A stretch of 63,394 nucleotides of DNA, the filler included, from Craspedostauros australis (taxonomy: Eukaryota), in assembly GCA_030167865.1 (NCBI GenBank). It is 16 parts of 16 records of this genome, joined end to end, with 100 filler letters (N's around TTAATTAATTAA, not from the genome) between each part and the next. Parts side by side here need not be neighbours in the genome. Positions count along the whole stretch, not along the records: positions 1 to 19,598 come from JALAGF010001615.1; 15 more parts are not named here. The stretch is one strand, 5' to 3'. The notes below the pieces were generated by a model. That model searched no databases. It was given only the letters and a program-made list of their open reading frames with translations, and was not told where the DNA came from. Position 1 is the stretch's first letter; every line of letters begins with the position of its first letter. The translations under genes and the position numbers were made by a program. Below are positions 620 to 24,400 of this stretch, one piece after another.

Positions 620-3600
620 CTACGCTTCCTGCGTGCAGGTGGATGCACCCTCATCAAACTCACCGTCGTCGTGGATGATATCTTGCGAAGCATTGGCGGT
701 TGTCTCCACGCGTGCACCAGTAGCTCCACCGACAACTTGATCTTCGTTCGTGATCTCCTGGACGTACGTACGCACCATATCCATACCCTTGACGGCCCAT
801 TCCTTTCGATTCTTGGTGGCGTAGCTCAAGCATTCCCCGCCAGCAACGCCGAACACCTGGTACTTGTCCATCTCTCTTGCCAGAGGGATTACGTACTCGT
901 CAAAGAAAGTAAGTTCGGCCTCATACCACCCAGTGGAAGGATCGACGGGATCTCTCCCCATCTCGTACGCCAAGTACATCTCTTCAAATAGGCGCCGGTT
1001 CCATTTCTGATACACGTGCCAGTCTGTTGTTATGGTCGTTGCCATTGTGGGACGTCGATGGGATGCAGCGAGCGATAGTCGTGCCGAAGGCAAAAAGCAA
1101 GTCGCAGAAGTGTAGCACGTGTCGTGGCGAGCAAAATGAGGCCGGAGTCATGCAGATGACGCGAGAGAATGGAGAAGAGCAAGATCGCCGGTGAGTTGCA
1201 TCGCGATTCATTCTGCACTGCTGGTATCATATTTGCTGCTCATTGCAAACCGGGCTCATACAAGCAGTGATCGATGCCACGACTTCACGCCGCACAATGT
1301 GCAAGTATGGCAGACAGCGTACTTACGTTGCATGGTGTGCAAAATGTTCGATGCTTGCATAATCTGTTCCATCATGAGATTGGCACGGAGCTCAGGGATC
1401 ATCACGTGCAATAACCCATCGACGGAATCCCCGCGTTTCTTGACAACGTTGCTGTCGCCAACGCCACCATTGACATCGTCGTTGCATCCGCCGTCGTTTG
1501 CACTGTCCAATGTGCGAGCATTCGGACGGCATTCAAAATTACCATGTTGGTCTTGGAACACTTCTTTCTTGCTCGGGCCAGCAGTGTCCCACTGGTGATC
1601 CCTGGCCTCCTTCAATTTGTCGTTGTAGATGTCAGTGGACATGATGCAGACCGTCACGATTTGTCGGAGTTTCGTCATATCTGCCGGTGTTGCGAAGAGA
1701 ACATTGCGGAGATCGTCGAAGGTGTCTTCGAGGAGCATCTCCCATGCTACATCCAGCGCATGCTTCTTCGCGATGTCTTTGTAGTCGTACTTGGATGCCA
1801 GGTGGTGATTCTCTTTCACCAGCACGGAATTTGGGACGCCTGGATGAGCAATGCCGTACACCAAAGTTGCGAATATCACGCCGAACTGAGTCAGCGGGTT
1901 CGTCAGGCACACTCTATCGTTCAAAGTCTCCGCAGGCTGGTCGAGGATCTTGGAAAGGAACTTCGACGCCCCCATGGAGACGCTGCACGATCGAACGAAG
2001 TTGTGGAATGGGTTCGTTGATTTGTGCGCGTATGCAATCTGCTCCACGTACAGTCGTAGCTGCTTCACGACGGCAGCATCAATCATATTGCCCGGGTGAT
2101 GCGTCGATTGTTGCTTTGCCAATTTCTTGGAGCGAGAAGGCGAGGCCCGTTTCGATTCAGATGACTGTCTCCGGTGCGTGGGCTGTGAGATCGTCGCACT
2201 AAATTGTGCGGATGTATCGAGAGGATTAATCCCGTTCTCCGTGTCTAAAGCAGGAGGGTTCATTGCGGCCGCGATACGGCGGAGGTACCGCTTGAGCAAA
2301 TCCGTTTGCCAGTCAATGAGCCTGCTAATGTCGACGTCGGCGCTGCTGGCGAAGATGCCACCACGTGCGCTATCATTCCGTTCGCTCAACGACTGACGCC
2401 GTGTGCTGAACTCGGATTTGCCAGAGGTGGCGGAAATGCGAGGAGGTAGCGACGGAGCTGTCACATTGAGGAACTCCACATGTTTTGGTGTGAGGTTCAA
2501 CCAATACTGCGGAGACATTGTTGTGGTCAAGCCAGGGCATGGGCATGGGATCGTGCATGTAAGATTTACGCAAAGCGCACGAATGCCAATCAGGCCAGCA
2601 CAACAAGTGCGATGGCATCACGGCGTGGAACAAGCAGAGTTGTTGGGTGCGCACAGAATACGTATGTGTGATGGTGTGAGGGTACGAGGATGGCACGAGC
2701 ATTCATGAAAAGACCATCGGGGCACTTGGAATCGAAGCCTGGCGCTGCATACTCGTGTACACATGGGCCAAATCATTGCGCAGTTCACGCGCGAGACATA
2801 TCAGTACGTACCGTTTGCACTTCGCCGAGACCCTTTGCTTGAACTTTGTCCTCTCGGCTATCAAGCCAGCTTCCCTTCTTGGCGGCAAAGATCAAATCTG
2901 CAGTCGATTGGGATATCTGGATGCGTCCACGTCGGCTCGTGCTCTCCATGCGCGATGCCGTGTTCATCGTATCTCCAAAGAGTTGGAATCGTGATTTCTC
3001 GCCCGACAGCACCCCGCCGATGACCGGGCCGCTGTGGATACCGATGCGCAAAGAGAGGGTGCTGGTGTCGGGTCCAAGCACTGTTTCCAGTTTCTTCGAA
3101 AGGGTGTACATGTTGAAGAGGATATCTTGAGCGAATTTGCCCATCCGGACGGCGTGGTCCGCCTGAGGGTCAGGAAGGCCAGTGCAGGCGACGTAGCAAT
3201 CGCCGATGGTCTCCACCTTGAAGACATGCCGTCGCTTGGCAATACGATCGAATCGTCTGTACAAAGTTTGCAGCAACGTGAACACCATGCCAGGCTCTCG
3301 TTGGGAACTCCAGGCGGTGAAACCGACGATGTCAGCAAAGAGCACCGAAGTATCGGGGAAGAAATCGGCGATTGGTTGATCGAGGAGAAAGCTCTGCCCG
3401 GCCATTTCCAATTCGGCGTCGTTTCCTTGCTTCAGCGTGACGATGTTGCGCAACTGATCGAGAGGCTTGAACAGCACCGAGTTGCGGCGGGGCATGGGCG
3501 CGGCTGGTCGATTCGAAAGCTGCAATGATGGATCGTCGATGGTTGGAGCGACGAACGATGACGCGGTTTGCGGATTCCTTGACGATGCGAATAATCGATC

Positions 3601-5797
3601 TTGCACGCTGCTCGGGAACAGCGACGAAACGATGGCATTGGATCGCAATGCAATCTTCATTATCCTTGTTTGACGTTTCTGCACAGTGCAATCATAGATT
3701 TGAAACAAGAGGATTGCAAAGAGGAAGACAGCGCCCACGACCATCGACGAATGCAATGGTTGAATCGTGATGTACTCGTCTTCCACGGTCTTGCTGGGGT
3801 AGACCCGCAACGTGAATGGGCATTCGGCGTAATCCATGGTCACTCCAATCGTAGAAAATGCGTCTGTAGTTGACGATGAGCTGCCCAATACATACGCTGT
3901 CTCCATGGACGCTCCGTACCTCTGGTCATGCAGGTCGCCCGGGCCAAGGGAAGCTGCTGTCGGCCCGTCCAAGTTCAAGGTGTGCGCCTTTCCATGTCCA
4001 TCTTCGATGACGCAAACGAAGCCGACGTCCTCAGGCGGCAGGATGCCGGACAGCAGTATTGACCAATCGACGAAGGCGATTAGAACGGCCACCACTTTTC
4101 GGTCGTCTTTCTGTGTGTGATGATCGTCAAAGATCGGATAGTACATCAGGCTGATCGCCTTGCTTTCGTCACGCCCATTTGATGTCGCTTGGGAACCAGC
4201 GCCGTCGATGATGGCATGGACGAGAGTGTTGCCAACGTCTTTCTGACCGGCTCCGTTGCCATCGATAATACTGGAAAGGCTGGCTGTCCCGGCTTCGACC
4301 GATCGCAGCAGGTCGTCAACGAATAACTCATCAGATGCCAAGTTGTAATTGATCAGGGGATGCGCCAGCGGGTGTGCCTGCCACAGGGGATAGTGTGGAG
4401 CTGGCTCAGTCTCCACAAGCCTCTCAACAGGAGTTGTTTCAGAGCCATCTTCGTTTGGTTGAGGATCTGCCGCTTTCCAAATCCAGTCATAAATGCCGTC
4501 TTGATACGAGGCAGGATCGAAATCATCCAAGGTGATACCCATTCTCCTTTGTGCGTCTGTGAGTTGCTGCCGCTCAGCCTCTCGCGTTTCGAGGCCCCAA
4601 TTGAGAGAATCAAGTATCCATCCGCGGTTGTCGACGGCGTATGACTCCCACTGCGTTCGTTGTGCAGCAAGCGGAACCGTGACGATTCCATGCGAGCCTG
4701 ATTGCCTCAGCGCGGAAGTCGCGTGAAGGTGAAAGTCAGGTAGTGTGACGTTCTGTTTGAAAATGAGGACAAGGGAAGGCAGCCGATGGGGAGAGAAGAC
4801 GATGAGTGCATCCACATCAGGCATGTACCATCAAGTGAAAGCATGAAATGGGCCAATGCCACCGACGGCATGAAGAGGGTTACACGCCCAAGCATTGGCA
4901 CGCACGGTTTTGCAGTGCGGTAGAATAGGAAACGCAAATACAAGCGCATGGAGTGGAACGGATGATGGCAGTTGCAAGTTAGAGATTGTGAGGTTGTGAC
5001 GTTGAAACGCGTTGGATCGTGACGAGCCGGAATGAAATCTGATGGCATGTATCGTGTACGACATTCCGCACCAAGAATTGTACCACCCAGGTGTGAAACT
5101 GATCGCAGCATCAGGGGCCCTGGCGAGAAATAAGTCAGTCACTGACGTTGACACGAATGCGCATGCCGCCACCTGTCATGGAACGTACCGGCCAGACGGA
5201 ACCCGTGGCTTTGGCATGAGACGTGAATTGAGACGACAACGAATCGATGGCACCGATTTGGTGTTCGAAATGTATTTGGAACGACTGGATGATCATGTTG
5301 GAGCGGTCATCGACGTTGGTCTCGAACTGATCTCGCTCGTCCTGTTCGATGCGATGATGCACCAGCCAGCCGAGGCAGATGGTGAGGCAGAGCAGAGCGA
5401 GCATGAAGATGAGCTTGAGCCATCGCAGGCGCTTGATGGATCTGGTGTCGATGAGCTGGTTGGTGACATCCACATCGGTCTCGCTGCCATGCTGACTGCT
5501 GTCGCCGGACAGCAAGCTCGCTCGCACGAACTGCGTTGAAGAATTCAAACCTCGAAGGACGTGGGACACATCCCACAACCGTCTGTGCGACTGGTCTTGA
5601 CCGAAGGCTGCAGTGGCTGCTGTGGCGTCGGAGTTTCCGCAGCCGTTTAAAGCGCGGCTGCTCCTCGTCTTCCTCATGGAGTGATCATCGTCGAGGTCCT
5701 TCAGGAAGGAGCAGCTGCTGCCGCTGGCTTCTTCATCGTCCATGGATTCGATCGAGTGTTCTGCCGTTGGCGGGGACTCCTCCTGTCGGAACTTCAT
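620..5797 (-). CDS. Membrane class III adenylate/guanylate cyclase with sensor region and C-terminal degenerate cyclic-nucleotide phosphodiesterase domain; 4 exons (5797-5189, 4752-2812, 2506-1327, 1023-620), ~1377 aa
   Basis: Four ORFs join through GT..AG introns (5188-4753, 2811-2507, 1326-1024) giving WP|NVTLPDF, QT|YWL and MQH|WHVYQKWN; spliced length 4134 nt is divisible by 3. Two hydrophobic TM segments; cyclase motifs VLFADIVGFT, KVETIGDCYVA, RIGIHSGPV, LFGDTMNTASRMES; PDE-like NPFHNF, HPGVPN, STDI, FFDEYVIPLA. Confidence 0.9.
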
Positions 5798-5952
5798 CCT
5801 TCGTCGGCTCTCTGGCGTTTGCTATTGTGGTATGTCGTGTGGTGTGTATGGTGTGGTGCGATGTACGTTCCCTCCAGTTCCGTTCCCTCTCTCGCTGTCG
5901 CTGTTTCTGTGCCCTGGTTCGTTGTGATGGCGATAGAACCAATGCGCTCTCT

Positions 5953-6003
5953 CACAGTGCTGTTGACAGTGCTGTTGACAGTGCTGTTGACAGTGCTGTT
6001 GAC
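5953..6003 (+). repeat. 12-bp tandem repeat (cagtgctgttga) x~4 upstream of the cyclase gene
   Basis: Directly visible near-perfect tandem copies. Confidence 0.9.
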
Positions 6004-7748
6004 GGTGAGGTCGTTACTGTTGTGTTGGTGCAGGTGATGCCGTTGACCTTGCTCTGACACTTGCGCTCGATCTGGTTGTGCTGTGTCGTGTTGTGTCACG
6101 GGAGCTGCGAATGAGCGTGGTTGCTCCTTCCCTTGGCTTCCTTGCCTGCCGATGCCCGTGCCTCCAACAGTGCCGCTCGGCCAGAGATTGTTCGCTTCCG
6201 TCTTCTGTTGCTTGTGCGCAGCAACTGCTTCTCATGGAATGATGCTTCGCGATTGACAATGTCTCGCTCTCTCTGCGCCCCATCCGTCGGTGATGGGAAG
6301 GCCTTCCCTCTTTCTCCACAAAGCGGCAAGTTCCCCTGAAGGAAGAAGCGCTGCACGGCCATGCTCGCACTCGTTGCCAGGCGAGCTGGTGCCTCCCGCC
6401 TTCGCTTGACAACATGGCGATGGCGCCACCAGCGAGCGTGGACGCCAACCCATCAACCACAACCCACCGACACATGTTCATCTTCGAGACTCGATGACCG
6501 CTCTTCGCGACAAGTGACAAAAGGACCCTCCCAGGTCATCTCTCATCACCACGGCTCGTGGCAAAGAGATGGCGAGATGAAGCGGGATGGATGAAAAGGC
6601 GCCTCCGGATCGATGTCCCTCGACATTTCTATGGAACGCAAGGTTCACCCAACCAAGAAGAAGAAGAGAGAGGCGGAAACGCACTTTTGGCGTCAATCAA
6701 AGAACCTCGAACCTTCGCCAGAACAAGTTACGGGACTGGATGATTCCTCGTGACTCAACACATTCACAAAACTTCCTTCACGGTCGCAGAACCTCAAGGA
6801 ACTTCGGCAACAACTGTGCTCACAAATCTCCACGCAACTCATCACGCGAAAATGCGCCTAACCGTGGAGTGTTGCAAAACACGCCGAACTGGAGCGCACA
6901 GTCGTACGCACCCGTAGGTATCGCATGAACATACCCGTGCAATCATGTTATAATGCATTGCCGGAGATTGATGTCGTGGCCACAGAAGGTGTTGTGCGAT
7001 GGCACAGGTAATGCAACGAATCCACTCGATCCGTGCAACAGTGCGTACGGGTAATGGGAGACGTGCAATAGTCGTAGCTCGCAAGGGAACAGGATGGGAT
7101 GGAATTGGGTAGCTCGTTCATGACAAACTCGCTTGCTCCACCCCTGGTGACGGAACAATTGCATGGGACCTGTTGGCCCTTGCCCACAAGACCTGCCAAG
7201 TCGTGAAGTTCGATGCGGAGACGGGTGGTTGCCATCGTGTCCGGTCGACTCCAAGCGACGACGACGACGACTACAGGTCGAATATGGAGAGTCGACACAG
7301 CCTATGCATCCCCACGTCTCTGGCCTCCACAACAATGATCTTGCCATGTTGTTGTATCGGCAATGCTGTCATCTCTCCACCCACATATGGCAGAGGGCTC
7401 TACTCGTACTATACTGGACAATGCTCTGAGTGCTGCTGTTGACAGTGTGCCTCGGTCATCGCTGCTTGTTGACTCAATCACTTGGCGAAGAGCGATGGGG
7501 AAGGCAAAGAAGGCCTGACTCTGATGGTGACGTCCACAAATGAAAAGGAAACGAAGGGAAACAGACCAAGCGTGCAGCCACACAATACAACCAGACACAT
7601 CAACAGCCAACAAGCAACGGACTCAAACCACAAAATTCAATTGTAATTATCTGATTACAACCACCATTACAATCGCACTGCTCAGCCTCTGGATCTATCC
7701 CTTGGCTTGTGGCCAGGTGGAGACTGACGGCTGCTCTGTTGCTACAAT

Positions 7749-8865
7749 AGTGGATGTGGAATGTTAAAAGATGGAGGAGCGAGATGCTATCCATCTCACG
7801 TTTGAAGATGAAATGAGGGAAGGGCCACACTGGTATGATATGGTGGTGTGCTGGAGTGGTGTCGACTGCGTCGTCAAGCAGTCCATCAATGGCACTGGTG
7901 GTGGCAATGGTAACAGCAGTGGTGATGGAAATGGCAGTGGTATTGGTATTGCACAGTCTTCAGCAGGCAACGAATGCAATTCGGTGGCTGTGTACTCCAG
8001 TATTCGCATCTGGTACGCCATCCAGGATATTGCCAAAGAGGACAGCACCAGTAGCAGCGGTGACCAAATGAACACAATGGAACAAGGTTGCATCCTGCAG
8101 CAACACTTTGGCAACAGCACCTACTGCCTCACTGGCAACTACAGTAACGATATCAAGCGTGACACCACCAGATGCTGCTTCATCATCTTCCGCAATGCCT
8201 TGTCCTTCTCCAAGCCTGCTGCCAGAATGGATGGCAAGAATGTCGCTTTGAAGGCGTCATCCAAGGCCGAGCGCATCCAGCAACAAATGCGACAGCAGAT
8301 CGACGATGCCAAGATCCCCACACGCACCACAAGGCCCATCATCGATCGACTCATCGACAAGGCCGATCATTTCTTCTAGTTGGGGATCTACTTCCACAAT
8401 CCCTTTGGGCGATGTACGAAGGCGACGATGGCCACCAACCGCACCCGCAGCCGCAATCGCAATCGCAATGGAAGCACCGGCGCAGATAAGGCCGCCGTCC
8501 TGACCGTCTGTGGTGATGCGGCGCACGCCATGCCACCATTTATTGGACAGGGCACCAATCAGGCCATCCAAGACGCCCACTGTCTGGCCAACGCCATTCA
8601 GCAGCATACCATTCAGTGCAATGGACAAGCCAATGGCAGGAACAGCCTCGAAGACATCCTACAGACAGAATACAAGGACAAGCGATGATCCACCATCGCG
8701 TCCACCACAACCATCACGGGCATCACGGCCAAGGCTGGTCTGCTGGGGTACATGGAGACCTCATCGGGGCCGTTGGCCAAGTTTCGGGATGTGGTCGTCT
8801 TCACCATGGACAAGACGGGCGTTGCGAAGAAGATCTTGTTGGATGCCGCAGTGCCGAGGATATGA
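7749..8865 (+). pseudogene. FAD-dependent monooxygenase (zeaxanthin epoxidase/salicylate hydroxylase-like) pseudogene, C-terminal half
   Basis: GDAAHAMPPFIGQGTNQAIQDA motif; in-frame stops at 8377-8379 and 8686-8688; N-terminal GxGxxG region absent. Confidence 0.85.
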
Positions 8866-9196
8866 GAATGTGTGGAGCGGTGCGGAATCGCGATGTGGTG
8901 CTGATAGGTTCTGTGGACGCTTTCGCTTGCTGTTAACAGACATTCCAGACTTCTCACCAACCACAGCGCGCAACCACAATCACCCAGCCATCTCCCTTGT
9001 CCCATCCTACTCATACCAGAACACATTCGCATGCACCAGATTATCAATATTGTCTTCGTGAGCTGTTCTAATTATTCGACGACCAGAGTTCTCGAAGGCC
9101 ATCCAGGATCTCATCAATCGTCGATGTGCCTTTCTTTTCCTCATCGCAAGCACAAACATCATCAACTTGGACGAGTTGATCTGCTCTCTTGTCATC

Positions 9197-10534
9197 TCAT
9201 GTCCACTTCAACATCTCACTGCCCTGCAACAGAATGTTGAAAGTCTCGCTCATGGGATCCATTGTACCCATTAGACCCTGTTCAAATAGTGTACCCAATA
9301 GACCCATTGCATCCGTTGGACCATGACATTTGCTTGTTCTCATCAGCATCTCTCCAAACAGGGCCAGTGGCCGTGACCATGTTGGAAGGGAACCCAGCAC
9401 TGCTCTCACCTTGTTGCGATGGTTTCGCCGCAAGATATGTTCAACAAGCGCATTGTACGAATGGACATGTTTGCCAGGCGGGCGTGGACAAATGTAGAGA
9501 TGGGTGAGCCGGGCATTCTGCTCCAAGGCTTGCTCAAGTGCTTCCATTTGTGTCAAGAGGGTCTCAGGCGGAACTTCAAACATGTCGGGATCCAAGAAGT
9601 CCCAGTATGCGAGATATGACAAGCCCTTGTTTCCCAGGAGCGATACCAAAGCGTCGAACCTTGCCATCTGCTCTTGTCGCGATGACCCAATCCCATTACA
9701 GGAAACGCTGAGCTCCTTCAGGTGTGATGTATCTGAAAGGAGTTTGATGATCTGGTCGATTTCTTGTCCGTCGTAGTCCTTACAGAACATGATGTTGAGC
9801 TTGTTGATGCGCTTGTTTGACTGGAATAGCTTTGCCAAGCTATCGCAAGTGATATGAGTGCATGAGAGGGATATTCCGGTGACGCTGCAATTGTTTGGAG
9901 ACAGCCATCTGCACAAATCAGCGCCCCCATTGGCGAGCTTACAGTTACTAAACTTAACCCACTTCGAGTTTTGGGAGATGTTGAACATGAGCTTATCGCA
10001 ATCAACAAGATCACATGAGTACAACTTCACACGATGTGTCACAAGAGGGATATCGTGGAGTTGCTTCATCTCCACGAAGTATTGAGTCAAGCGGATGCCG
10101 TCGGCCCATGGAGATTCGGGTGGGTGTTTGGCAGCCAATCGAAGTAAGAAGCGAATCACTTGCTTGACTTCTTCTCCAAACTGGCCAGAGCTACCGAATT
10201 CCAGATACAGGGATCGAATGCGCATCCGCCTGCAGCCACTGTACCACCAATTGCTCAGTAGAACATGAGGTGATAAAGCAAGGTGCTTGAGCTGCCGCTG
10301 CATCGATTTCAAGTCAGCAAAGGTGAATCCTGCTTCGATGGCCATGTCCCAGTATTCCATCCGCTTGGGTGTGACACTGTAGCAGTCGATCTGCTTTACT
10401 GGTGGGTAGTGCACATTGAACACGGTCTTTGGTGGCAGCTCTTTGCCCTGGAGTTGTTTCCAGAAAGTCTTGAAGTCTGGATCGTGATCGCGGTTGGTAT
10501 TGGTGGTGGCGACGGCATCCATGTTGAAATCCAT
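9197..10534 (-). CDS. RNI-like leucine-rich-repeat protein, paralog 1 (445 aa)
   Basis: Intact ORF; repeated xxLxLxx strands (IRSLYLEF, INKLNIMF, LKELSVS, LTHLYI) alternating with helices; ALEQN..L..L / ILRRN..R C-terminal cap typical of diatom RNI-like families. Confidence 0.7.
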   Translation of the reverse strand: MDFNMDAVATTNTNRDHDPDFKTFWKQLQGKELPPKTVFNVHYPPVKQIDCYSVTPKRMEYWDMAIEAGFTFADLKSMQRQLKHLALSPHVLLSNWWYSGCRRMRIRSLYLEFGSSGQFGEEVKQVIRFLLRLAAKHPPESPWADGIRLTQYFVEMKQLHDIPLVTHRVKLYSCDLVDCDKLMFNISQNSKWVKFSNCKLANGGADLCRWLSPNNCSVTGISLSCTHITCDSLAKLFQSNKRINKLNIMFCKDYDGQEIDQIIKLLSDTSHLKELSVSCNGIGSSRQEQMARFDALVSLLGNKGLSYLAYWDFLDPDMFEVPPETLLTQMEALEQALEQNARLTHLYICPRPPGKHVHSYNALVEHILRRNHRNKVRAVLGSLPTWSRPLALFGEMLMRTSKCHGPTDAMGLLGTLFEQGLMGTMDPMSETFNILLQGSEMLKWT

Positions 10535-11458
10535 CTTGCTACGTGTTGTCGATGCTGGTTATTGTGGGGGCTGTCGATAGTGTTGGTTGCACAGCAGGCG
10601 GAGCAGGCAGGGTATGTAGTCCCAAATCAGTTGCGCTCGGATGGCGATTGTGAGCTCATCCGCTCAAGGTTGCTGTCCTCCATTTCATGATCCTGTGCAT
10701 TGATCACGAAGGGATCTATCGTCAGTCAACACGCCTGCATGGACATACGCAGTTCCACCAAGGTGTGTGGCGTGGTGTGGTGTAGTACAGCCACATCATG
10801 ATCCGAAGCTGGCTAGCTCGCTCGCTTGCACGATACGACCTTGGATGGTGCCCAACTTGGCCATACTTTGCAGTTGTGCTTCATCATGTGATACCATAGG
10901 TCGTGTAATATGAGTAGGCACATCCCTTTGTGATGGTCTTGGGGGAGTCAACCATTATGCCATACGAATGCATGCTATGTGCTTCGGCAGTTGCATGTGA
11001 TGGAACGACTGCGGTGAGCAGATCCACGATGTGAGAAATCCACGATTCTCGTGTTTTGTTGCGAGGATGACGATGACGATGTTGATGACACCACTCGTGT
11101 TTCAATTCGCCACAAACGTATCCAGGACTCATCTCGCCTCACCCAATCATTGCGAACTCTGTGGCGATGACGATGATGATGGCCATGGTGGTGCTGCAGA
11201 CATCGCCGTCGAATGCTGATGCAGATCGTCACAACTGCAACGCTCACATGATGATCACGGTCACCATCAAGTGTCTATCCACAGAGTACGTATACCAACA
11301 CTCTCTCGTTTCTCTCTGTTTCTTGAGAGAGACTTCGAACAATGCCGGCTGGTTGACTTGGTTCCTCACTCATCAATCGCCCAACCACAGAGACGGCCGC
11401 AACCAGAGGAATCACTACATTGGCAACAATGACACCAACGACACCAACGACGTGATTG

Positions 11459-12590
11459 ATGCATCAATAGAGGGTGATTGGTGCCATCTACATCGCGTGC
11501 ATGGTGATGGCAACGAACTCACTGTCATCCCCGTCATCCCCGTCATCCTCACTCCAACGCAGAAGCGAAGCAGCAGAAGCAACAGGAATGGGAATGAGAA
11601 CCACCAATCAATACGGAAGAATGCCGTGATCGGCGGCGGCATCGCTGGTCTCTCCTTGGCGCATGCCTTCGAGAACAACAACGGCGACGATGCACACAAC
11701 ATTGATGTGATATGCTTCGATGTGACATGCTTCGATGCGAGACCAGAATTGGACGTCGTCGCAGGTGCGGGTGTGCGGTTCAACGGTGGAATGGCGGTGC
11801 TCAAGCAGATCTCTCTGTCCCTGCAGCGTGCGGTGGTCGATGCCGCGCTGCCGTTGACGACCGTGTGATCCAAGACCACCAACTGGGTCTCATCCAACGA
11901 GGAGTTCCAGCTGCTGCAGTTCAATCTCAGACAGATGATCATGGATGCGGGCGGCGACACGACGAAGGCGCCGATCCAGGAGGATGGCAAGGTCATGGCG
12001 TACCATACTCCATCATGCGAGAAACATTGCAGGAGGTGCTGCAGGAGGAGCTGAAGACGACGCCTGTGCATCTTGGCAAGGTGATGAATGTGGAATGTCA
12101 AAAGACGAAGGCGCGAGATGCCATCCATCTCACATTTCAGGACGGGATGAGGGAAGGGCCGTACGATATGGTGGAGGGCTGTGATGGCGTCAACAGCGTT
12201 GTGAAGCAGTACATCAACGGCGATGCGCGGTCGCCATCAGACAATCAACGCAATTCGCCAGATGTGTACTCTGGTATCCGCATCCGGTACGCCATCCAGG
12301 ATGTCGCCAAAGAGGACAGCAACAGTGGCATCAGCAGCGTCGACGGAACGAACACAATGGCACAAGATTCCATCTTGCAGCAACACTTTGGCAACGGCGC
12401 CTGCTGCCTCACTGACAACTACGGTAACGGTATCAATCGTGATACCACCCGATGCTGCTTCATCATCTTCCGCAACGCCTTGCCCTTCCCCAAGCCCACC
12501 GCCAGTGAGGATGATGAGAACGTCGCTTGGAAGGCACCATCCAAGGCCGAGCGCATCCAGCAACAGATGTGACAGCAGATCGATGATGCC
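11459..12590 (+). pseudogene. FAD-dependent monooxygenase pseudogene, N-terminal/middle part
   Basis: VIGGGIAGLSLAHA dinucleotide-binding motif and GCDGVNSVVK (DG motif); stop at 11866-11868, frameshift, stop at 12570-12572; C-terminal part deleted. Confidence 0.85.
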
Positions 12591-12837
12591 ACCAACCACA
12601 ACACGCAATCACAATCACCCAGCCATCTCCCTTGTTCCATCCTACTCATAGTAGTACAACAACACATTCACATGCACCAGAATATCAATACTGTCTTCAT
12701 TAGACGTTCTAAGTACTCCACGAGCAGAGTATTCCAAAGCTATGTCGGATCGCATCAATCATCGATGTGTCTTTCTTTTCCACATCGCAAGCAGAAGCAC
12801 CATCAACTTGGACGAGCCGATCCGCTCTCTTGTCATC

Positions 12838-14157
12838 TCATGTCCGCTTCAACATCTCACTGCCCTGCAACAGAAGATGAAAAGTCTCGCTCATGGGATC
12901 CATGGGACCCATTGCATGCATTGTACCACGACGTTTGTTTGTTCTCGTCAGCATCTCCCCAAACAGGGCCAGTGGCCGCGACCATGTTGGAAGGGAACAC
13001 AGAACTGCTCTCACCTTGTTGCGATGATTTCGCCGCAAGATACGTTCAACAAGCGCATTGTATGAATGGGCATGTTCGCCAGACGGGCGTGGATCAATGT
13101 GGAGATGGGTGAGTTGGGTAGTCTCCTCCAAGGCTTGCTCAAGTGCCTCCATTTGTGCCGAGGGGGTTTCAGGCCAAACTCCAAATATGGCAGCATTCCA
13201 GAACTCCAAGTATGTGAGAGATGACAAGCTCTTGTTTCCCAGGAGCGATATCAAAATGTCGAACCATGTATCTTGTTCTTGTCGCGATAACCCGTTCCAA
13301 ATACCAGAAACCGTGAGCTCCTTCAGGTGTGATGCATCTGAAAGGAGTTTGATGATCTGGTCGATTTCTTGTCGCGAGTAGGTTCGTTGTTGGTTGTAGT
13401 CCCCACAGAAACTGATGTTGAGCTTGTTGATGCGCTTGTTTGACTGGAATAGCTTTGCCAAGGTATCACAAGTGACACGAGTGCCTAAAAATGATACTTC
13501 GGTGACACTGCAATTGTTTGGAGATAGCCATCTGCACAAATCAGCGCCCCCATTGGCGAGCTTACAATTATTAAACACAACGGATTTGGAGTTTTGGGAG
13601 ATGTTGAACATGAGCTTGTCGCAATCAACAAGATCACATGAATACAAATGCACACGATGTGTCACAAGAGGGATATCGTGGAGCTGCTTCATCTTCGTGA
13701 AGCATTGAGTCAAGTAGATGCCTTTGTCGAATGGAGATTTGAGTGGGTGTTGGGCAGCCAATCGAAGTAAGAAGCGAATCGCTTGCTTGTCTTCTTCTCC
13801 GAATTGTTCAATAGTGCCGAATTTCAGATACAGGGATCGAATGCCCATCTGCCCGCATTCATTGCGAAACGAACCGCTCAGTAGAACATGAGGTGATAAA
13901 GCAACGTGTTTGTAGCACCGCTGCATCGATTCCAAGTCAGCAAAGGTGAATCCCACTTCGATGGCCATGTTCCAGTGTTCCATCCGCCTGGGTGTGACAC
14001 TGTAACAGTCGATCTGCTCTGCTCGTGGGTACCACGGAGTGAACACGGTCTTCGGGACCCACCATTTCTGATGAAGCCGTTTCCAGAAAGTCTTGAAGTC
14101 CGGATCATGGTCACTGTTGGCATTGATGTTGGCGTCACCATGCATGTTGAAAGCCAT
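12838..14157 (-). CDS. RNI-like leucine-rich-repeat protein, paralog 2 (439 aa)
   Basis: Intact ORF collinear with 9197-10534. Confidence 0.7.
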   Translation of the reverse strand: MAFNMHGDANINANSDHDPDFKTFWKRLHQKWWVPKTVFTPWYPRAEQIDCYSVTPRRMEHWNMAIEVGFTFADLESMQRCYKHVALSPHVLLSGSFRNECGQMGIRSLYLKFGTIEQFGEEDKQAIRFLLRLAAQHPLKSPFDKGIYLTQCFTKMKQLHDIPLVTHRVHLYSCDLVDCDKLMFNISQNSKSVVFNNCKLANGGADLCRWLSPNNCSVTEVSFLGTRVTCDTLAKLFQSNKRINKLNISFCGDYNQQRTYSRQEIDQIIKLLSDASHLKELTVSGIWNGLSRQEQDTWFDILISLLGNKSLSSLTYLEFWNAAIFGVWPETPSAQMEALEQALEETTQLTHLHIDPRPSGEHAHSYNALVERILRRNHRNKVRAVLCSLPTWSRPLALFGEMLTRTNKRRGTMHAMGPMDPMSETFHLLLQGSEMLKRT

Positions 14158-15217
14158 CCTGCTATGTGTTGTCGATGCTGGTTATGGTGGGGACTGTCGA
14201 TAGTGTTGGTTGCACAGCAGCAGAGCAGGCAGAGTCTGTGGTCCCAAATCAGTTGCGGTTGGATGGAGATTATGAGCTCATCTGCTCGAATTTGCTGTCT
14301 TCCATTTCATGATCCTGTGCATTCATCACGAAGGGATCTACCATCAGTCAACACGCCTTCATGGACTTGTGCAGTTCCACCAAGGTGTATGATGTGGCAT
14401 GGTGCGTTGTGGTATGGTTCGGTGTGGTACGACTGTGGATGTTCACATCATGATCCGAAGCTGGCTGGCTCGCTCGCTCACACGATACGACCTTCGATGG
14501 TGCCCAACTTGGCCATGCTGTGCAGTTGTGCCTCTTCATGTGATACCATTGTTTGTGTAATATGAGTAGGCACATCCCTCTGTGATGGTCTTGGGGGAGT
14601 CAACCATTATGCCATACGAATGCATACTATGTACTTCGGCAGTTGGATGTCATTGAACGACCGTAATGGGCGGATCCACAATGTGACGAATCCACCACGA
14701 TGACTTCTTCGGTGGACATCAGAGGCGTTTCCCGCGTTTTGTTGGGAGGATGATGACGATGATGACGATGGTGACACCACTCGTGTTTCAATCGACAACA
14801 AACGTATCCAGGACTCATCTCGCCTCCCACAATTATTGCGAACTCTGTGGCGAACGAATCAACCATCAGTCTTCCCATCAACACGGAGCGTGTGCGAGAG
14901 GATTCGTTCTGCGGCGATGACGATGGCCATGGTGGTGCTTCTGCAGACATCGCTGCAGAATACTGATGCAGATCGTCACAACCGCAACGCTCACATGATG
15001 ATCACCGTTGCCATCAAGCGTCTATCCACAGAGTACGCATACCAACACACACACTCTCTCTCTCTCGCTTCTCTCTGCTTCTTGAGAGTGACTTCGAACA
15101 ATGCCGGCTGGTTGATTTGGTTCCTCACTCAATGATCGCCCAACCACAGAGACAGCCACAACCAGAAGAATCACAGCAATGGCGGCAATGACAAAAATGA
15201 CACCAACGACGTGATTG

Positions 15218-16096
15218 ATGCATCAAAAGAGGATGATTGGTGTCATCTACATTGCGTGCATGGTGCATGGTGGTGGCAACGAACTCACTGCCATCCCCGT
15301 CGTCCCCGTTATCCTCACTCCAACGCAGAAGCGAAGCAGTAGCAGAAGCAGCAATGGGAGTGGGAGTGGGAACCACCAACCAATATGGAAGATTGCCGTG
15401 ATCGACGGTGGCATCGCCGGTCTCTTCTTGGCGCATGCTTTCGAGAACAACAGCAATACCGACACCAACGACCACAACGTCGCTTGGAAGGAATCATCCG
15501 AGGCCGAGCGTATCCAGCAACAGATGTGACAGCAGATCGATGGTGCCAAGATCCCTATGCACACCATCAGGCCCATCATCGATCGACTCATCGACAAGGC
15601 CGATAGTTCCTTCGAGTTGGGGATCTACTTCCACAATCCCTTTGCGCGGCAGTCCAAGGTGATGGTGGCCACCAACACAAATCGCAACCGCAACCGCAAT
15701 GGAAGCACCGGTGCAGACAAGGTCGCCATCCTGGCTGTCTGCGGTGATGCAGCGCATGCCATGCCACCGTTCCTTGGACAGGGCACCAATCAGGCCATCC
15801 AAGACGTCTACAGTCTGGCCAACGCCATTCGTCAATACACTATGCAGTACGATGGACAACTCAATGGTGGGATCAGCCTCGAAGACGTCCTGCAGACAGA
15901 ATACAATGACAAGCGATGATCCACCACCACGGACATCATGGACATCACGACCACCACAGCCAAGACCGGGCTGCTGGGATACCTGGAGGCCTCATTGGGA
16001 CCGTTGACCAAGTTCCGGAATGTGTCCTTCTTCACCATGGACAAAACAGTCGTTGCGAAGAAGATCTTTCTGGATGCAGCCATTCCGAGGGTATGA
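15218..16096 (+). pseudogene. FAD-dependent monooxygenase pseudogene with large internal deletion
   Basis: VIDGGIAG (GxGxxG mutated) joined almost directly to VAWK...; GDAAHAMPPFLGQGTNQAIQD; stops at 15527-15529 and 15917-15919. Confidence 0.85.
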
Positions 16097-16573
16097 GAAT
16101 GTGTGTCGCGGTGTGAAATCGCGATGTGGTGCAGATAGGTTCTATGGACGGCTTTCGCTTGTTGTTGATGGACCAGCCATACTCGAACAATCTAGACATT
16201 CCATGCTTCTCATCAACCACAACACACAATCGCAATCATAATCACAATCTCAAGCGAATTCCTCCCAATCAATCAATAAATCAATCAACCAACCATCTCC
16301 CTTTCTCTGTGCCACGAGCACGAGTACACATGCATCGAGGACGCCCATGCTCGACCAATGCATCATAGTTATTCGGAGTAAGGCTGCACAGTATCCTAAT
16401 GTATGCGTGACATTGAACGTACTCGTACTATCTCAATCATTGGTGCACTCCGCCTTGCTTTGCAAACTGTCGAGTGGAACCTTCGTTGCTTTGACGAGTG
16501 TGGCCAGTCCGTTATCACTTCCGATGCTCTGGCAGAAGCGCTTTGATCTATTCCAGGCAGCATCTCGTCTTTG

Positions 16574-17935
16574 CTAGTTCTTCTCGTGGGCAATGGAATC
16601 TTTCTCAAGTTGGACGAGCCGATCCGCTCTCTTGTCGTCCCATGCCCGCTTCAACATGTCACTGCCCTGCAACAGAAGATGGAAAGTCTCGTTCGTGGGA
16701 TTGTATGTACCCAATATGTTCCACCGTCTGCTTGTCCTAATCAGCATCTCCCCAAACAGGGCCAGTGGCCGCGACCATGTTGGAAGGGAGCACAGCACTG
16801 CTCTCACCTTGTTGCGATGATTTCGCCGCAAGATACGTTCAACAAGCGCATTGTATGAATGGACATGTTCATCAGGCAGGCGTGGTCGAATGTGGAGATA
16901 GGTGAGTTGGGTAGTCTGCTCCAAGGCTTGCTGAAGTGCTTCCGTTTGTGCTGAGAGGGTCTCAGGCGGAACCTCAAACATGTCGGGCTTCCAGAACTCC
17001 AAGTATGTGAGAGATGACAAGCTCTTGTTTCCCAGGAGTGATATCAATGCGTCGAACCATTTCATCTGCTCTGGCTCCGATGACCCAATCCAAATACCAG
17101 AAACCGTGAGCTCCTTCAGGTGCGATGCATCTGAAAGGAGGTGGATGATCCGGTCGATTTCTTGTGAGTGGATGTGTTGGGTGCTGTTGTCCCGACAGAT
17201 ACTGATTTGGAGCTTGTTGATGCGCTTGTTTGACTGGAATAGCTTTGACAAGGTATCACAAGTGACGCGGGTGCTATAAAAGGATACTTCAGTGATACTG
17301 CAATTGTTTGGAGACAGCCATCTCCACAAATCAGCGCCCCCATTGGCGAGCTTACAGTTACTAAACATAACCCACTTCGAGTTTTGGGAGATGTTGAACA
17401 TGAGCTTGTCGCAATCAACAAGATCACATGAATCCAAATGCACACTATGTGTCACAAGAGGGATATCGTGGAGCTGCTTCATCTCCACGAAGCATTGAGG
17501 CAAGCAGATGCCTTTGCTGCATGAAGACTTGGGTGAATGTTCGGTAGCCAATCGAACCACGAAGCGAATCGCTTGCTTGTCTTCTTCTCCCAATTGGCCA
17601 TCCCTGCCGAAGTTCAGATACAGGGATCCAATGCGCATCCGCCCGCAGCTCTGGAGCCACGAATCGCTCAGTAGAACATGAGGTGATAAAGCAATGTGGT
17701 TGTGCCGCCGCTTCATCGATTTCAAGTCAGAAAAGGTGAATCCTGCTTCGATGGCCATGTCCCAGTATTCCATCCGCTTGGGTGTGACACTGTAGCAGTC
17801 GATCTGCTTTGCTGTTGAGCACTGCGCGTTGAACACGGTCTTCGATGACAGCTCTTTGCCATGGAGCTGTTTCCAGAATGCCTCGAAGTGAGGGTCATGG
17901 TTGGTGTTGGCGACATCATCCATGTTGCAGTTCAT
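16574..17935 (-). CDS. RNI-like leucine-rich-repeat protein, paralog 3 (453 aa)
   Basis: Intact ORF collinear with paralogs 1 and 2; reads TGG where the others have the TGA stop, giving a longer C-terminus. Confidence 0.7.
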   Translation of the reverse strand: MNCNMDDVANTNHDPHFEAFWKQLHGKELSSKTVFNAQCSTAKQIDCYSVTPKRMEYWDMAIEAGFTFSDLKSMKRRHNHIALSPHVLLSDSWLQSCGRMRIGSLYLNFGRDGQLGEEDKQAIRFVVRLATEHSPKSSCSKGICLPQCFVEMKQLHDIPLVTHSVHLDSCDLVDCDKLMFNISQNSKWVMFSNCKLANGGADLWRWLSPNNCSITEVSFYSTRVTCDTLSKLFQSNKRINKLQISICRDNSTQHIHSQEIDRIIHLLSDASHLKELTVSGIWIGSSEPEQMKWFDALISLLGNKSLSSLTYLEFWKPDMFEVPPETLSAQTEALQQALEQTTQLTYLHIRPRLPDEHVHSYNALVERILRRNHRNKVRAVLCSLPTWSRPLALFGEMLIRTSRRWNILGTYNPTNETFHLLLQGSDMLKRAWDDKRADRLVQLEKDSIAHEKN

Positions 17936-18691
17936 CCGTTTCTTGTTGTCACTGTCGTCGCAGTTGTTACGGCTGATGCCGATTGTTGCTGATTATTGTT
18001 GATTGTGGCACAATCGTATGAGTAGAGCTGACAGAGCAGGCAGAGTATGTAGAGTAGGTGTGTGGTCCCAAATCAGTTGCGCTTGGATGGCGATTGTGAG
18101 CTCATCTGCTCAAGCTTGCTGTCCTCCATTCCATGATCCGGTGCATTCATCACGAAGGGATCTACCATCAGTCAACACACCTTCATGGACTTGCGCAGTT
18201 CCACCACTGTGTACGGTATGGTGTGGTGTGGTGTGATACGACCGTGGACAGCCACATCATGATCCGAAGCTGGCTCGCTCGCTCACACGATACGACCTTT
18301 GATCGTGCCCAACTTGGCCACGTTGTGCGGTTGCGCCTCTCCATGTGATACCGTAGGTCGTGTAACATGAGTACATCCCTCCGTGATGGTCTTGGGGGAG
18401 TCAACTACGATACTATTACATTATTCCGATCGATACAGTTCTTCGGCAGTTGGATGTCATCGAACGACTGTAATGGGCAGATCCACGATGTGACGAGTCC
18501 ACGATGCGAGGAATCCACCACGATGGCTTCTTCCGTGGACATCAGAGGCGTTTCTCGTGTTTTGTCGAGATGATGATGGCGATGATGACGATGGTGACAC
18601 CACTCGTGTTTCAATCGACAACAAACGTATCCAGGACTCATCTCGCCTCACTCGATCATTGCGAACTCTGTGGCGAATGAATCAACCATCA

Positions 18692-19598
18692 GGACCGTCC
18701 GGTACTTGGATTAGTCGTGGATAAATAAGACAATTTTCATTCGACTCAATAGACTACTTTAGCACCAGTTTCGTGGGTTCATGTTTCAATTCTGTGGACA
18801 CACATTTCCATATTGATTATAACGGTCAACTCAAACCTATAACGTTCAGAGAGCAGGACAGGCCAGCCAACACGGAACGCTTGAGTGTCTTCCTGTCACC
18901 GTTCTGAATCAAACCCCCCGTTCTGAATCAGACAGCTCATTCTGGATTCAGAATCAGAACTTCTGAAGTTCTGAATCCGTTCTGACTCGATTATGTTGTC
19001 TGAATGCTCTTGCGGACGAGGGCCGGGTGGTTTACAAGATTGTCACCATTTTAAACATGACACATAACGTATATTAACGCCTGTCAAACACAACAAGTTG
19101 GTAACACAACAACCATTTCTTTGTTGTTTGCTGTCGAGCGCTCACACGCACATCATCGATAGCTGCTCCATCGTCGCTGTCGCTGTCGCTGGTACTGTTG
19201 CTGTTGCTGCACACTTGCAAGTCTTCACACATCATACCACGAGTACACCCTCTTCGATTCACAATGGCTGATGTGATCACAGCTGATCAAATGCTCCACA
19301 TGGGGCTCATGGTGGTGAGCTCCTGCTATGGTGAATTCGACGGTAAGAGTATGATGGCCAAGACCAGCTGCTTCCGGTCGCATTTTGGTGTCGGGCCTGC
19401 AGCTGTCGCGGCTCTCTACTCTGACCTCCAATCGCTCAACATCGACCATGCGTTCGCGAGAATCTCTTTGCGCAGGTTGCTCATCGCTCTGTTCTGGATC
19501 AAGACATACAGCACGGAGACCTTGATGACCAGCAAGTTCCACCTCACCGAGAAGACGATTCGAAAGCACTGCCTCGCATACGTGCAATCGATTGCTGC
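18692..19598 (+). mobile_element. Left part of a putative PIF/Harbinger(ISL2EU)-like DNA transposon, truncated by contig end
   Basis: Homology to the triplicated unit stops abruptly after ...aaccatca; new sequence begins GGACCGTCC, is AT-rich, has a TTCTGAATC repeat cluster, then a transposase-like ORF. Confidence 0.55.
19264..19598 (+). CDS. N-terminal fragment of DDE (Harbinger/DDE_Tnp_4-associated) transposase-like protein
   Basis: FRSHFGVGP...LLIALFWIKTYSTE...EKTIRKH..YV..IA resembles the HTH-containing N-terminus of diatom Harbinger-type transposases; catalytic DDE region lost in the gap. Confidence 0.6.
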
Positions 19599-21449: not shown

Positions 21450-24400
21450 TCATGTCAGGCCGAGCCAACTACTCATAAGCCGCCTCTCATTCTGCATGGT
21501 GCGTGCCCGTCGCCGGGCCGCCACCTTGATTTGAACCTCCTGCACGTTGAGTATCCATTGTTGCATTTGCATCTCTGTGGCGTACTCCATCTGGTACCCC
21601 TCACGGAGGAGTACCGCTTCGGACTCCGTCATATCCTGGCTTACACCGCCGGTCATCCGTCTCACTTGCCTCCGTAAATCCGCAAGCGCCGGGTGTTGAT
21701 CAGCGTCGTGTACTTTCTCGTTGCGTGCCCTCCACACGCCCCACGGAACCTTCCAGACCCACCGTACCACCTCTTTCATCCATGCGAGGTCGTCAGGAAA
21801 CCTGCATTCGTGCTGCTCCATCCATTGAGCTTGCTGCTTTCGCCAGTCCTTGTGCATGAACCCCAACATCAGCGGGTACCAGCCGACACCTTTCTGGATG
21901 CCAGGCGCCTCTTGACACCGTCTCCACTTGACGAGACCGATGCGCATGTTGGCCACCAGCCTGGGCGCGGTTCCAATGTACACCATTCTGTCGATCAGTT
22001 CGTCTGCCGCAGTAGTCCACGCGGTCGCGTGTTCTTTACACCTCAGAACATGCCTTGTAGTTTCGGTTGCCCCACAGAACGCACACTGCTCGCTTTCCTG
22101 CTGGCCCATTTGCTTCATTTTTCGGCCCACGCCGACAAACCCGGACGACCACTTGGTAACGAATTTTGCCGCGTCGCGATTCTTCTTGGCACCTCGTGCA
22201 CCTTGGTACCCCTCCCAGTCCACACTTCGAGCAGTCTCCATGTTCCACTCAAATTTCTTGGCCCAATAGGCCAAGGTGGCTGCGGCTTGGAGGGTCTTGT
22301 ACACTTCTTGCTGCCCCACATGAGAATAATGCTCCCCATTGACGACGACAGTCCATCGGTTTGTCACCGACCGCCACCGTCTCACTCGTCGTCGGGAAGC
22401 AGTTATCGCCCAGAAGGCTTTGGCGCGCTTGTCCCATTCCACGTTCAGTTTCTCGAGCATGGAGAGACTCTTCCCCGTGCTGTCCTGGTGCCCTCGCACC
22501 CACTCCCATGTCAGGCTGGCCCGGATGCGCCCTCGCAAACGATGTATCTCCACAAGAATATCCCAGTCCCGTTGTCCGGGGCGTGCGAAGTCTTCTTGAG
22601 CTCGTCGAAGGGCCTGAGATCCGTCCAGGGCCAATGTGACAGAGCACGTCTCGTCCAGATCTGGAACCATATCCAACATCTCGAGTGAGGCCCATATGCC
22701 TGCCAGCTCGCTCCGATAGGAGCTATGGACTGAAGGTGGTCCTGGGACGAAGGTGTTGCATGCCACGTGTCGCTGCGTAGCCTCGTCGAACATAATTGAA
22801 CACGAAGTACCGCGTGCTGACTTGAACGACCCGTCACTCACCAGTAGGAGCGTATGGTTTCGCGCCGCTATCGACATGAGTTCCCAGGTAGCATCCCCGC
22901 CCAGGTCCTCCACCGGATCGTACGGTTGCTCGGACTGCTCAGGCTCTCGGTCGAGCCCAATGCGTCCATTCCAGGTAATCCCTCGCTCCGTAGTCGCCAC
23001 GACCACTCGATGTATGTTAGCGGGGAGCAACCCTACTGACCCCTGCGGCCGGTACGACACTGATCGTGTCCTGCCTCGCCGTAGCGGCACGAACACTCGT
23101 ATTGGGTTGGCATGCGAATCGTAGATCTTGTTCGACAGCGCCGACTTCCACCACCGCCATGTACCGTCGTTCCTGTGCCATTTCCCAAGGGGAGCTTGGA
23201 GCGACCGACCTCGGTAACACAGACTCCTGCACCACCTTTGCCATTCCCTCCACCACCCACTGGGAAGATTTTCCGGACTACGAGCCCATGAGCGCCCTCT
23301 AGACGGGGCATCCCTACCTTCCATGACACCGATTGCCAGTGACGTCCCGGCTGCCTCGACAATGTCCGACATTCGGGAAACCCCGAGTTTCATCCTGCAC
23401 ATGTTCAGGTGATATAGCATAGCACCTTTCACGCCGTCGCGGACCCATCGGGTCATAAGGAACTCGTCCCCGTCTCGTTGAAGCTCTGAAGCCTCCGTGG
23501 TCTCCACTATATTCACTCCCGTGTCATACAACTGCCTCCATAGGCCTTTCACCCAACAGGGAGTCACACAGTGGTGAAGCTCCTCGTACGAATGATCGAA
23601 CAAAGAGCCGCCAATACCCAGCTCTGTTTTGACGGCTTGTATCGAACACCGTAACATCCGACCCGTGGGGGTGTCCCCATGGACTTCGTCAAACACCAGC
23701 TGAATCTGTTGAATTAGTTGCCGGTGGACTGGGTTGGGCACCCCTAGCCCGCCAAGCGAGACAGGAGCATAAACCAGATCTCTCGGAAATGTTCTTGAAC
23801 ACCCCATCATCGGCAACGCTGCGAGCAGTGCTGGCGCCATGATCCTTCTCCACTGGGCTGCGGTAAGTTGGGTGATCCCCATCACGTACTCGACCGACTT
23901 GATAAAACGGAGAGTTAGGGCACACTTCGCGTCTTCTGGGGACAGCTGTGACCTTCGCATTTTTCCGGCGAAGTCCTCGGCTTTCGACCTGAGTGCCTTT
24001 ACCTGTTGCTCCTCGTTTCCGTCGAACGACAGGAACACCCCGAGCGTGAATAGAGGCTGGTCCAGGGGCCGTCGCGGTATTGCACTTCGTGCCCCATCCC
24101 CATCGACAATGACGATCTCTTCTTCCAGGTCGCCATCTGTCCACTGCCAGTGGCCGTCTTCAAACCGTGGGCTCAGAGACCACCACGCAGACTTGTTAGG
24201 GACGATGGCGCCTCCTGTGACACGCAGCAACCCGCTCCAGTCTTGGACCATGTTTGCGAACTGCTCCGCCGAAACCCTGGTATCCCTTCCGAGCATGACC
24301 AGGTCCGTATCATCGACAAACGCGGACCCGAGGACATCGAAGCTTCCGTTGCCATTTGGGAAAGCCACCGTCTGCTTGTGCCCCCTTTGCTCCATAGCCT

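Follow-up and report, generated by a model that had tools for sequence, protein, structure and literature searches.

Three tandem leucine-rich repeat genes of the diatom Craspedostauros australis with changes concentrated at outward positions of predicted strands

The 63,394-nucleotide stretch analysed here (the window) joins 16 parts of 16 records of the Craspedostauros australis assembly GCA_030167865.1, with filler between them, and its first part (positions 1 to 19,598, from JALAGF010001615.1) carries a three-unit tandem array at 7751-18692 with a unit of ~3.7 kb. Each unit holds one long open reading frame (ORF) on the minus strand, and the three encoded proteins, A, B and C, are 72-73% identical and predicted to fold as leucine-rich repeat (LRR) solenoids. 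The residues at which they differ are not distributed at random but concentrate at the outward positions of the predicted strands and in the loop that follows each strand. A, B and C are best described as paralogs of a soluble LRR family that are functional or were so until recently. We regard it as reasonably probable that they serve as soluble adaptors or sensors, each docking through a surface that is constant and binding through a concave face that differs from paralog to paralog.

Predicted fold and placement of variable residues

Nine strand/helix repeats are present in both of the AF2 models, that of A (3 sequences; mean pLDDT 57.7, with 70-90 over residues 160-310) and that of C (7 sequences; mean pLDDT 70.0, pTM 0.69). 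Strands in the C model start at residues 105, 143, 164, 188, 216, 241, 275, 308 and 346, a spacing of 21-38 with a mean of ~30, and the repeat length of the ribonuclease-inhibitor (RI) type is ~28-29. A Foldseek search against the PDB returned 19 matches at E<=0.001 with LRR proteins throughout among the matches listed, including NLRC4, NLRP3, FBXL17, Skp2, TIR1, tropomodulin and RNase inhibitor. The VIA wide search, which is independent of Foldseek, placed LRR proteins at 50 of its 50 best matches (Z 14.2-9.2), with axonemal LRR proteins, CARMIL, NLRX1, NLRP9/14, RNase inhibitor, NOD2, RanGAP and Skp2 among them. The LRR family also matches P0005, a protein of 1580 amino acids (aa) with 12 LRR_6 stretches, at phmmer E=8.7e-11. 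These models and matches support the RNI-like fold that an earlier note had read from the DNA, an LRR solenoid of ribonuclease-inhibitor/NLR type.

The same note had described the proteins as lacking a nucleotide-binding domain and probably cytosolic, which is consistent with what Pfam and hydropathy indicate. No NB-ARC, NACHT or AAA domain is found in A, B or C at E<=10 in Pfam, and the LRRs begin after only ~105 residues. The N-terminal 30 residues are hydrophilic (mean Kyte-Doolittle ~-1.0) and no hydrophobic leader or membrane span is seen in a simple scan, made with no dedicated predictor, in which the maximum 19-residue Kyte-Doolittle mean is 0.93-0.95.

Variable residues were placed on the nine repeats in the register LxxLxLxxN, for which the hydrophobic pattern served as guide. 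In both models motif positions 3-7 of this register fall in strands, and positions 2, 3, 5, 7 and 8 are taken as the strand x positions. Strand x positions are variable at 26/45 compared with 58/205 for the remainder of the domain (Fisher p=0.0004), the latter divided between helices (27/127, 21%) and other loops (31/78, 40%); the strand core is variable at 12/45. Counted over motif positions 1-11, the number of repeats out of nine that vary is 2, 2, 5, 1, 7, 1, 8, 4, 2, 6 and 6. Outward positions 3, 5 and 7 are variable at 20/27 and inward positions 4 and 6 at 2/18, and this alternation along the modelled strand is as expected for a concave face. The proportion of nonsynonymous differences (pN) follows the same course. 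That of the x set is matched by only 4/20000 random sets of 45 codons, while at positions 3, 5 and 7 it reaches 0.303, matched by 0/20000 random sets, and at positions 4 and 6 it falls to 0.034. High pN is likewise obtained with the register moved by +2 to +5, which indicates variability in the loop following each strand as well. The six sets of strand variants listed in the earlier note are all present as written and fall in repeats R1, R3, R4, R5, R6 and R9, and mapping onto the predicted structure places the variable sites where that note had expected them. The invariant blocks belong to the C-terminal helices and, within repeats 2-5, to helices and loops.

A further comparison is provided by the close relatives of the family, four metagenomic proteins (P0001-P0004) found with phmmer among 1.84 billion representative proteins. 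P0001 agrees with any of A, B and C at 16/44 x positions against 114/194 positions elsewhere in the domain (p=0.011).

Constraint, relaxation and possible positive selection

The LRR ORFs have been maintained by selection, because they are stop-free in three lineages, have taken up only in-frame insertions and deletions (indels) and carry synonymous differences within their invariant blocks. Under neutral drift a lineage would remain stop-free with a frequency of 0.017-0.021 (~98 substitutions; 10000 simulations per starting sequence). Indels in the ORFs are all multiples of three (36, 18, 9, 15, 12 and 3), compared with 5' flanks in which most are not (1, 5, 11, 17, 13, 4, 16, 31, 47 and so on). 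Invariant residues are clustered, with 119 lying in runs of at least 8 against a mean of 36 in 20000 shuffles, 0 of which reach 119, and the five long invariant blocks quoted in the earlier note are all found within invariant runs of 19, 11, 12, 14 and 16 residues. In the runs of at least 8 the proportion of synonymous differences (pS) is 0.106 versus 0.165 gene-wide. Gene conversion was considered as the source of the blocks and is ruled out; as synonymous differences persist inside them, they are held by purifying selection.

For the strand surface, a partitioned maximum-likelihood (ML) fit with shared branch lengths gives a dN/dS ratio (omega) for x codons, omega_x, of 2.39 against 0.85 elsewhere. 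The likelihood-ratio test (LRT) statistic against omega_x=1 is 12.6 (p=0.0004), a value that 0/382 null replicates reach in a parametric bootstrap with a null 95% point of 3.65. What can safely be said is that the predicted concave face evolves at two to three times the rate of the remaining domain and no more slowly than neutral DNA.

A number of observations weigh against a positively selected binding face on intact genes, and they bear on the tests, on the structural frame and on the genes themselves. The DNA is that of three sequences only. The synonymous rate of x codons is 1.46-fold higher, a figure resting on only ~27 synonymous sites, and giving x codons their own synonymous rate lowers omega_x to 1.70 (p=0.21); with local dS, positions 3, 5 and 7 have an omega of 2.69 (p=0.07). 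Separate fits in IQ-TREE yield 1.435 for x codons versus 0.978 for the rest, and the NG86 estimate for x codons is 1.13. A comparison of models M1a and M2a in our own implementation is significant, with twice the log-likelihood difference at 45.1, but is not used as support, since it is driven by multi-hit codons in disordered ends and beside indels and since the paralogs show some mosaicism. Its 18 sites with posterior >0.8 include only 2 strand x positions; the others are 7 N-terminal, 4 C-terminal, 2 strand core, 2 helix and 1 loop site. A, B and C are equidistant, with 82, 87 and 83 sites common to each pair, and show some mosaicism (longest run of AC-shared sites, p=0.006), which can inflate selection tests; equidistance with slight mosaicism fits a single amplification burst. 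The repeat register was chosen after the strand variants listed in the earlier note had been seen, the structures are predictions, and the trend in P0002 is non-significant (17/25 versus 119/144, p=0.10). Pfam LRR matches are sub-threshold, the best being LRR_6 in copy A only (E=0.046; 14.2 bits, the cutoff being 23.4), and copies B and C match only LRR_R13L1-DRL21 at E 0.05-0.07. The p-distance of the ORFs, 0.146-0.150, equals that of the flanks, 0.12-0.17, and whole-gene dN/dS is ~1 (0.85-0.88 by NG86; 1.10-1.32 by YN00/ML). Finally, A and B share a premature TGA; C has TGG (Trp) at this codon, as have P0001 and P0002, the two relatives that extend over it. All three ORFs are open, as the earlier note held, with the qualification that A and B are not full length; the tail removed by the TGA is variable and poorly conserved among relatives. 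The diversifying selection proposed in that note fares in a similarly divided way. Omega_x is significantly above 1 with gene-wide dS and not with local dS, and the top M2a sites lie mostly off the strands. An omega above neutral on the putative concave face is suggested by these estimates, not established.

Many of these points would follow from relaxed constraint only, in which redundant copies drift after a recent triplication, folding residues alone are held, the strand surface is neutral and the copies are becoming pseudogenes. We take this seriously as a minority possibility. Whole-gene dN/dS of ~1 together with coding divergence equal to that of the flanks implies that much of each LRR protein evolves as if unconstrained, and taken alone these two observations would suggest pseudogenes. 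The local-dS omega at strand positions that is not significantly above 1, the tail that A and B have already lost, and the decay of a neighbouring monooxygenase gene over the same period all agree with relaxation, as does the report that tandem duplicates of Seminavis robusta are less constrained than dispersed ones (PMC7335047). Against it stand the three stop-free lineages, at ~0.02 each if neutral, and the strictly in-frame indels, which indicate that selection acted through most of the divergence. Relaxation also leaves unexplained why strand x positions change faster than both helices and other loops, and why P0001, an independent relative, is different at these positions too. Pure relaxation cannot exceed an omega of 1, and the shared-dS omega_x is above neutral. 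We infer that the strand surface is diversifying rather than merely relaxed. Should this be wrong, A, B and C would be ordinary young tandem duplicates with loose surface constraint.

Possible roles and related systems

The history we propose for a constant scaffold and a variable binding face would begin with a single tandem-duplication burst that copied a head-to-head pair made up of an FAD monooxygenase gene and an LRR gene. The monooxygenase copies would then have decayed and selection would have kept the LRR copies open. The constant scaffold, whose surfaces may dock a common partner, would consist of the C-terminal helices together with the helices and loops of repeats 2-5, all invariant despite synonymous divergence. 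The predicted concave β-sheet face (positions 3, 5 and 7) and the following loop, changing at or above the neutral rate, would be the variable part and may bind a protein ligand that differs between paralogs. Each copy would in this way be an adaptor or sensor with its own specificity.

In plant NLR clusters a conserved LxxLxLxx framework is combined with hypervariable outward strand residues, and the locus evolves by birth-and-death. The array resembles the LRR clusters of plant NLRs in its tandem paralogs, conserved framework and variable outward strand residues, and in showing birth-and-death. It differs from them in that A, B and C have neither NB-ARC nor NACHT, in LRRs that are of RI type with helices and not of the plant-specific type, in having three copies, and in an omega above 1 that is not firm. 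The plant resistance-gene LRR pattern is summarised in the introduction of PMC3341825, a study that describes positive selection on solvent-exposed LRR residues for Ectocarpus LRR-ROCO genes. Like the LRR-ROCO and NB-ARC-TPR candidates of that study, the present genes are a fast-evolving LRR family of the stramenopile lineage. According to the same source the Ectocarpus genes carry a Roc-COR GTPase and diversify through the shuffling of exons that each encode one repeat, whereas A, B and C are continuous ORFs with no GTPase domain.

Among pennate diatoms, the tandem duplicates of Seminavis robusta are mainly LRR-containing proteins, cyclases and others, and are less constrained (PMC7335047). 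The array is a concrete example of this pattern, which is treated in the available portion of that study as a genome-wide survey without residue-level mapping. RNase inhibitor, NLRP/NLRC/NOD2, RanGAP, CARMIL and axonemal LRRs align with the predicted fold at Z 12-14 over 185-280 residues. A, B and C depart from these RI-type matches in an identity of 13-17%, in their irregular spacing and in having their own ~100-residue N-terminus and C-terminal helices, neither assigned to a recognised family. Tandem amplification and reported positive selection are found in the PRAME family (PMC1262708, PMC3037382), whose members, as portrayed there, are likewise soluble tandem LRR proteins with no nucleotide-binding domain; the analogy is one of evolutionary mode only. 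Unlike the transmembrane LRR receptors, plant RLK/RLP and diatom MRP2/MRM2, A, B and C show no signal peptide or membrane span by hydropathy. Unlike the lamprey VLR, an incomplete germline gene that is assembled with flanking LRR cassettes, they are three complete ORFs with no further LRR fragments of the family in the window by tblastn. Our literature searches gave genome-wide reports of diatom tandem LRR expansions and transmembrane LRR mating candidates, and nothing that describes, at the level of residues, a soluble LRR family of diatoms in which the concave face is the fastest-changing part. The family would then be an undescribed one of a known type, that of fast-evolving tandem LRR clusters.

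On sequence evidence the family is very narrow and lineage-restricted. Besides P0001-P0004, the 1.84 billion representatives include three distant LRR proteins, and a search of them with no length limit gave no fused, longer relative of A, B and C. Word-indexed protein searches gave 2 matches with a single protein and 2 with a profile. No locus of the family was found in DNA in two metagenome scans and one viral-contig scan, and the LRR profile had a single chance-level match among PDB sequences (E=1.1). In the Atlas, the nearest clusters of the LRR protein are mostly Bacillariophyta.

The constant scaffold and variable face have two more specific counterparts, which can be regarded as special cases of the binding-face reading. 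The first, that of the earlier note, is a pathogen or virus sensor, in which cytosolic receptors lacking a nucleotide-binding domain have concave faces that track microbial or viral proteins and a constant signalling partner. We judge this unlikely. The arrangement does recall plant resistance-gene LRRs and Ectocarpus LRR-ROCO as described in PMC3341825, NLR LRR domains are among the nearest structural neighbours, and the array combines tandem amplification with birth-and-death of a neighbour. Set against this, Pfam finds no signalling domain in A, B or C, three copies in the window and four relatives among the 1.84 billion representatives do not make a large repertoire, and the same pattern occurs in non-immune LRR families such as PRAME (PMC1262708). 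The label of a recognition or immune locus that the earlier note attached to the array is an analogy only. In its fullest form, with stand-alone cytosolic diatom LRR sensors, each having a concave face fitted to its own target protein from a virus, bacterium or oomycete and an invariant convex and C-terminal surface that recruits a shared executor, the idea is more improbable still; if true, it would make the array the first concrete pathogen-recognition locus in diatoms, and one built without a nucleotide-binding domain.

The second, a non-immune variable adaptor or self-recognition protein, either an FBXL- or PRAME-like substrate receptor of a cullin-type ubiquitin ligase or a protein of sexual reproduction, is in our view quite improbable: some structural neighbours (Skp2, FBXL17, TIR1/COI1, KDM2A/B and NLRP14), an Atlas neighbour cluster named LRR/PRAME C-terminal (score 0.89; a lead only) and the fast-evolving genes, LRR receptor-like ones included, reported among diatom sex-regulated genes (PMC5485032, PMC7335047) favour it, but no F-box or other ligase-docking motif is found in Pfam at E<=10, the N-terminal 100 residues have no Pfam family and no Atlas neighbour, and the diatom mating-type LRR proteins described in PMC6261938 are transmembrane, which A, B and C are not. 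Skp2 aligns with the C model at Z 11.8 over residues 8-375, an alignment that does not settle the question of an N-terminal F-box. Among the sex-regulated genes of Pseudo-nitzschia, two LRR receptor-like kinases have a Ka/Ks above 1 according to PMC5485032.

Intracellular recognition of viruses, bacteria, parasites or mates is poorly understood in diatoms. For the reading we prefer, of a constant docking surface with a paralog-specific concave face, the array is a small and tractable case, with three intronless genes and a clear constant/variable architecture. If the variable face is positively selected and binds foreign proteins, diatom innate recognition would be opened to experiment.

The array, its neighbours and the rest of the window

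The coordinates of the array are collected in Table 1. The three ORFs are continuous and lie within repeated units, as the earlier note had them, and tblastn finds no further copies or LRR fragments of the family in the window beyond A, B and C. The start codon and first residues are common to the relative P0001. At the other end, the stretch past the stop of A is homologous to its counterpart in B and, in part, to the C tail, and the last ~10 codons of C lie outside the repeat homology, which begins at 16605. Over alignment codons 1-45 (coordinates of A, 9197-10534) pS is 0.41-0.51 compared with 0.05-0.27 in the rest of the gene, which could mean that the alignment is uncertain there or that the 5' end has had a history of its own.

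Table 1. Features of the tandem array, in positions of the window.
Feature	Position	Strand	Remarks
LRR paralog A	9197-10534	-	445 aa; ends at TGA where C has TGG
Predicted LRR domain of paralog A	~9476-10219	-	~residues 106-351
Readable frame past the TGA of paralog A	9068-9196	-	~42 codons, then stop
LRR paralog B	12838-14157	-	439 aa; ends at the same TGA as A
LRR paralog C	16574-17935	-	453 aa; Trp codon retained, followed by a short charged tail
Tandem unit 1	8955-11167		LRR gene and flanks
Tandem unit 2	12590-14853
Tandem unit 3	16605-18692		array end near 18692
FAD monooxygenase pseudogene copy 0	7777-8862	+	only ~180-492 of ~490-aa homologues; in-frame stops
FAD monooxygenase pseudogene copy 1	11590-12524	+	~19-139 in frame 1, ~145-307 in frame 3; C-terminal third missing
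FAD monooxygenase pseudogene copy 2	15374-16093	+	N-terminal ~70 residues joined to ~329-492

Each LRR ORF is paired head-to-head with part of a gene for an FAD-dependent monooxygenase (Pfam FAD_binding_3 and NAD_binding_8). Judged against full-length homologues of 443-495 aa, the three copies are each broken differently, which bears out the statement of the earlier note that the co-duplicated neighbour is dead in every unit. In copy 0 the frame-1 ORFs end at 8379 and 8688, copy 1 carries a frame shift, and the internal deletion of copy 2 amounts to ~250 residues. The best named homologues of the monooxygenase come from pennate diatoms, namely Cylindrotheca, Nitzschia, Seminavis, Amphora and Pseudo-nitzschia, and together with the Atlas clusters they are in keeping with a diatom source, probably of pennate type.

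Run X1, whose type 'RNA?' is a guess, has 0.16 of the sampled words. Over 7000-19500 it provides 600 short contigs at 90-100% identity (153, 227 and 220 in three identity bands), several of which join different units. These contigs point to the same or a close organism in X1 with further unit variants and are not a sign of transcription. In a contig of 1668 bases from the same run, sequence resembling 11585-12040 (the 5' part of monooxygenase copy 1) is joined to sequence resembling 7496-7747, with ~7% differences, and the organism in X1 may have the monooxygenase gene in a more complete form.

Elsewhere in the first part of the window, an ORF with a guanylate/adenylate cyclase domain (2785-4824, minus strand; E=4e-45) adjoins one with a cyclic-nucleotide phosphodiesterase domain (1256-2518, minus strand; E=7e-13), and the two may be exons of one cyclase/phosphodiesterase fusion gene spanning 1256-4824. 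Such fusion genes are linked to diatom sexual signalling. A homologue of this kind (GC/PDE) is mentioned in PMC5485032.

The remaining parts of the window hold further features. An ORF of 1826 aa at 21450-26930 (minus strand) has an N-terminal endonuclease/exonuclease/phosphatase domain and may be ORF2 of a non-LTR retrotransposon; it has no reverse transcriptase match at E<=0.001. Between 19599 and 60893 there are 51 runs of N totalling 2016 bases, many of them pairs of 44 N set 12 bases apart and recurring every 1-3 kb, with the appearance of a single short element that recurs and has been masked at each copy; ORFs running across them are unreadable. Repeat-protein genes are abundant in the window. 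A second LRR protein, unrelated to A, B and C and of the Pfam LRR_14/LRR_1 class, is encoded at 37402-38985 (plus strand), and a 744-aa ankyrin-repeat protein at 50231-52465 (minus strand).

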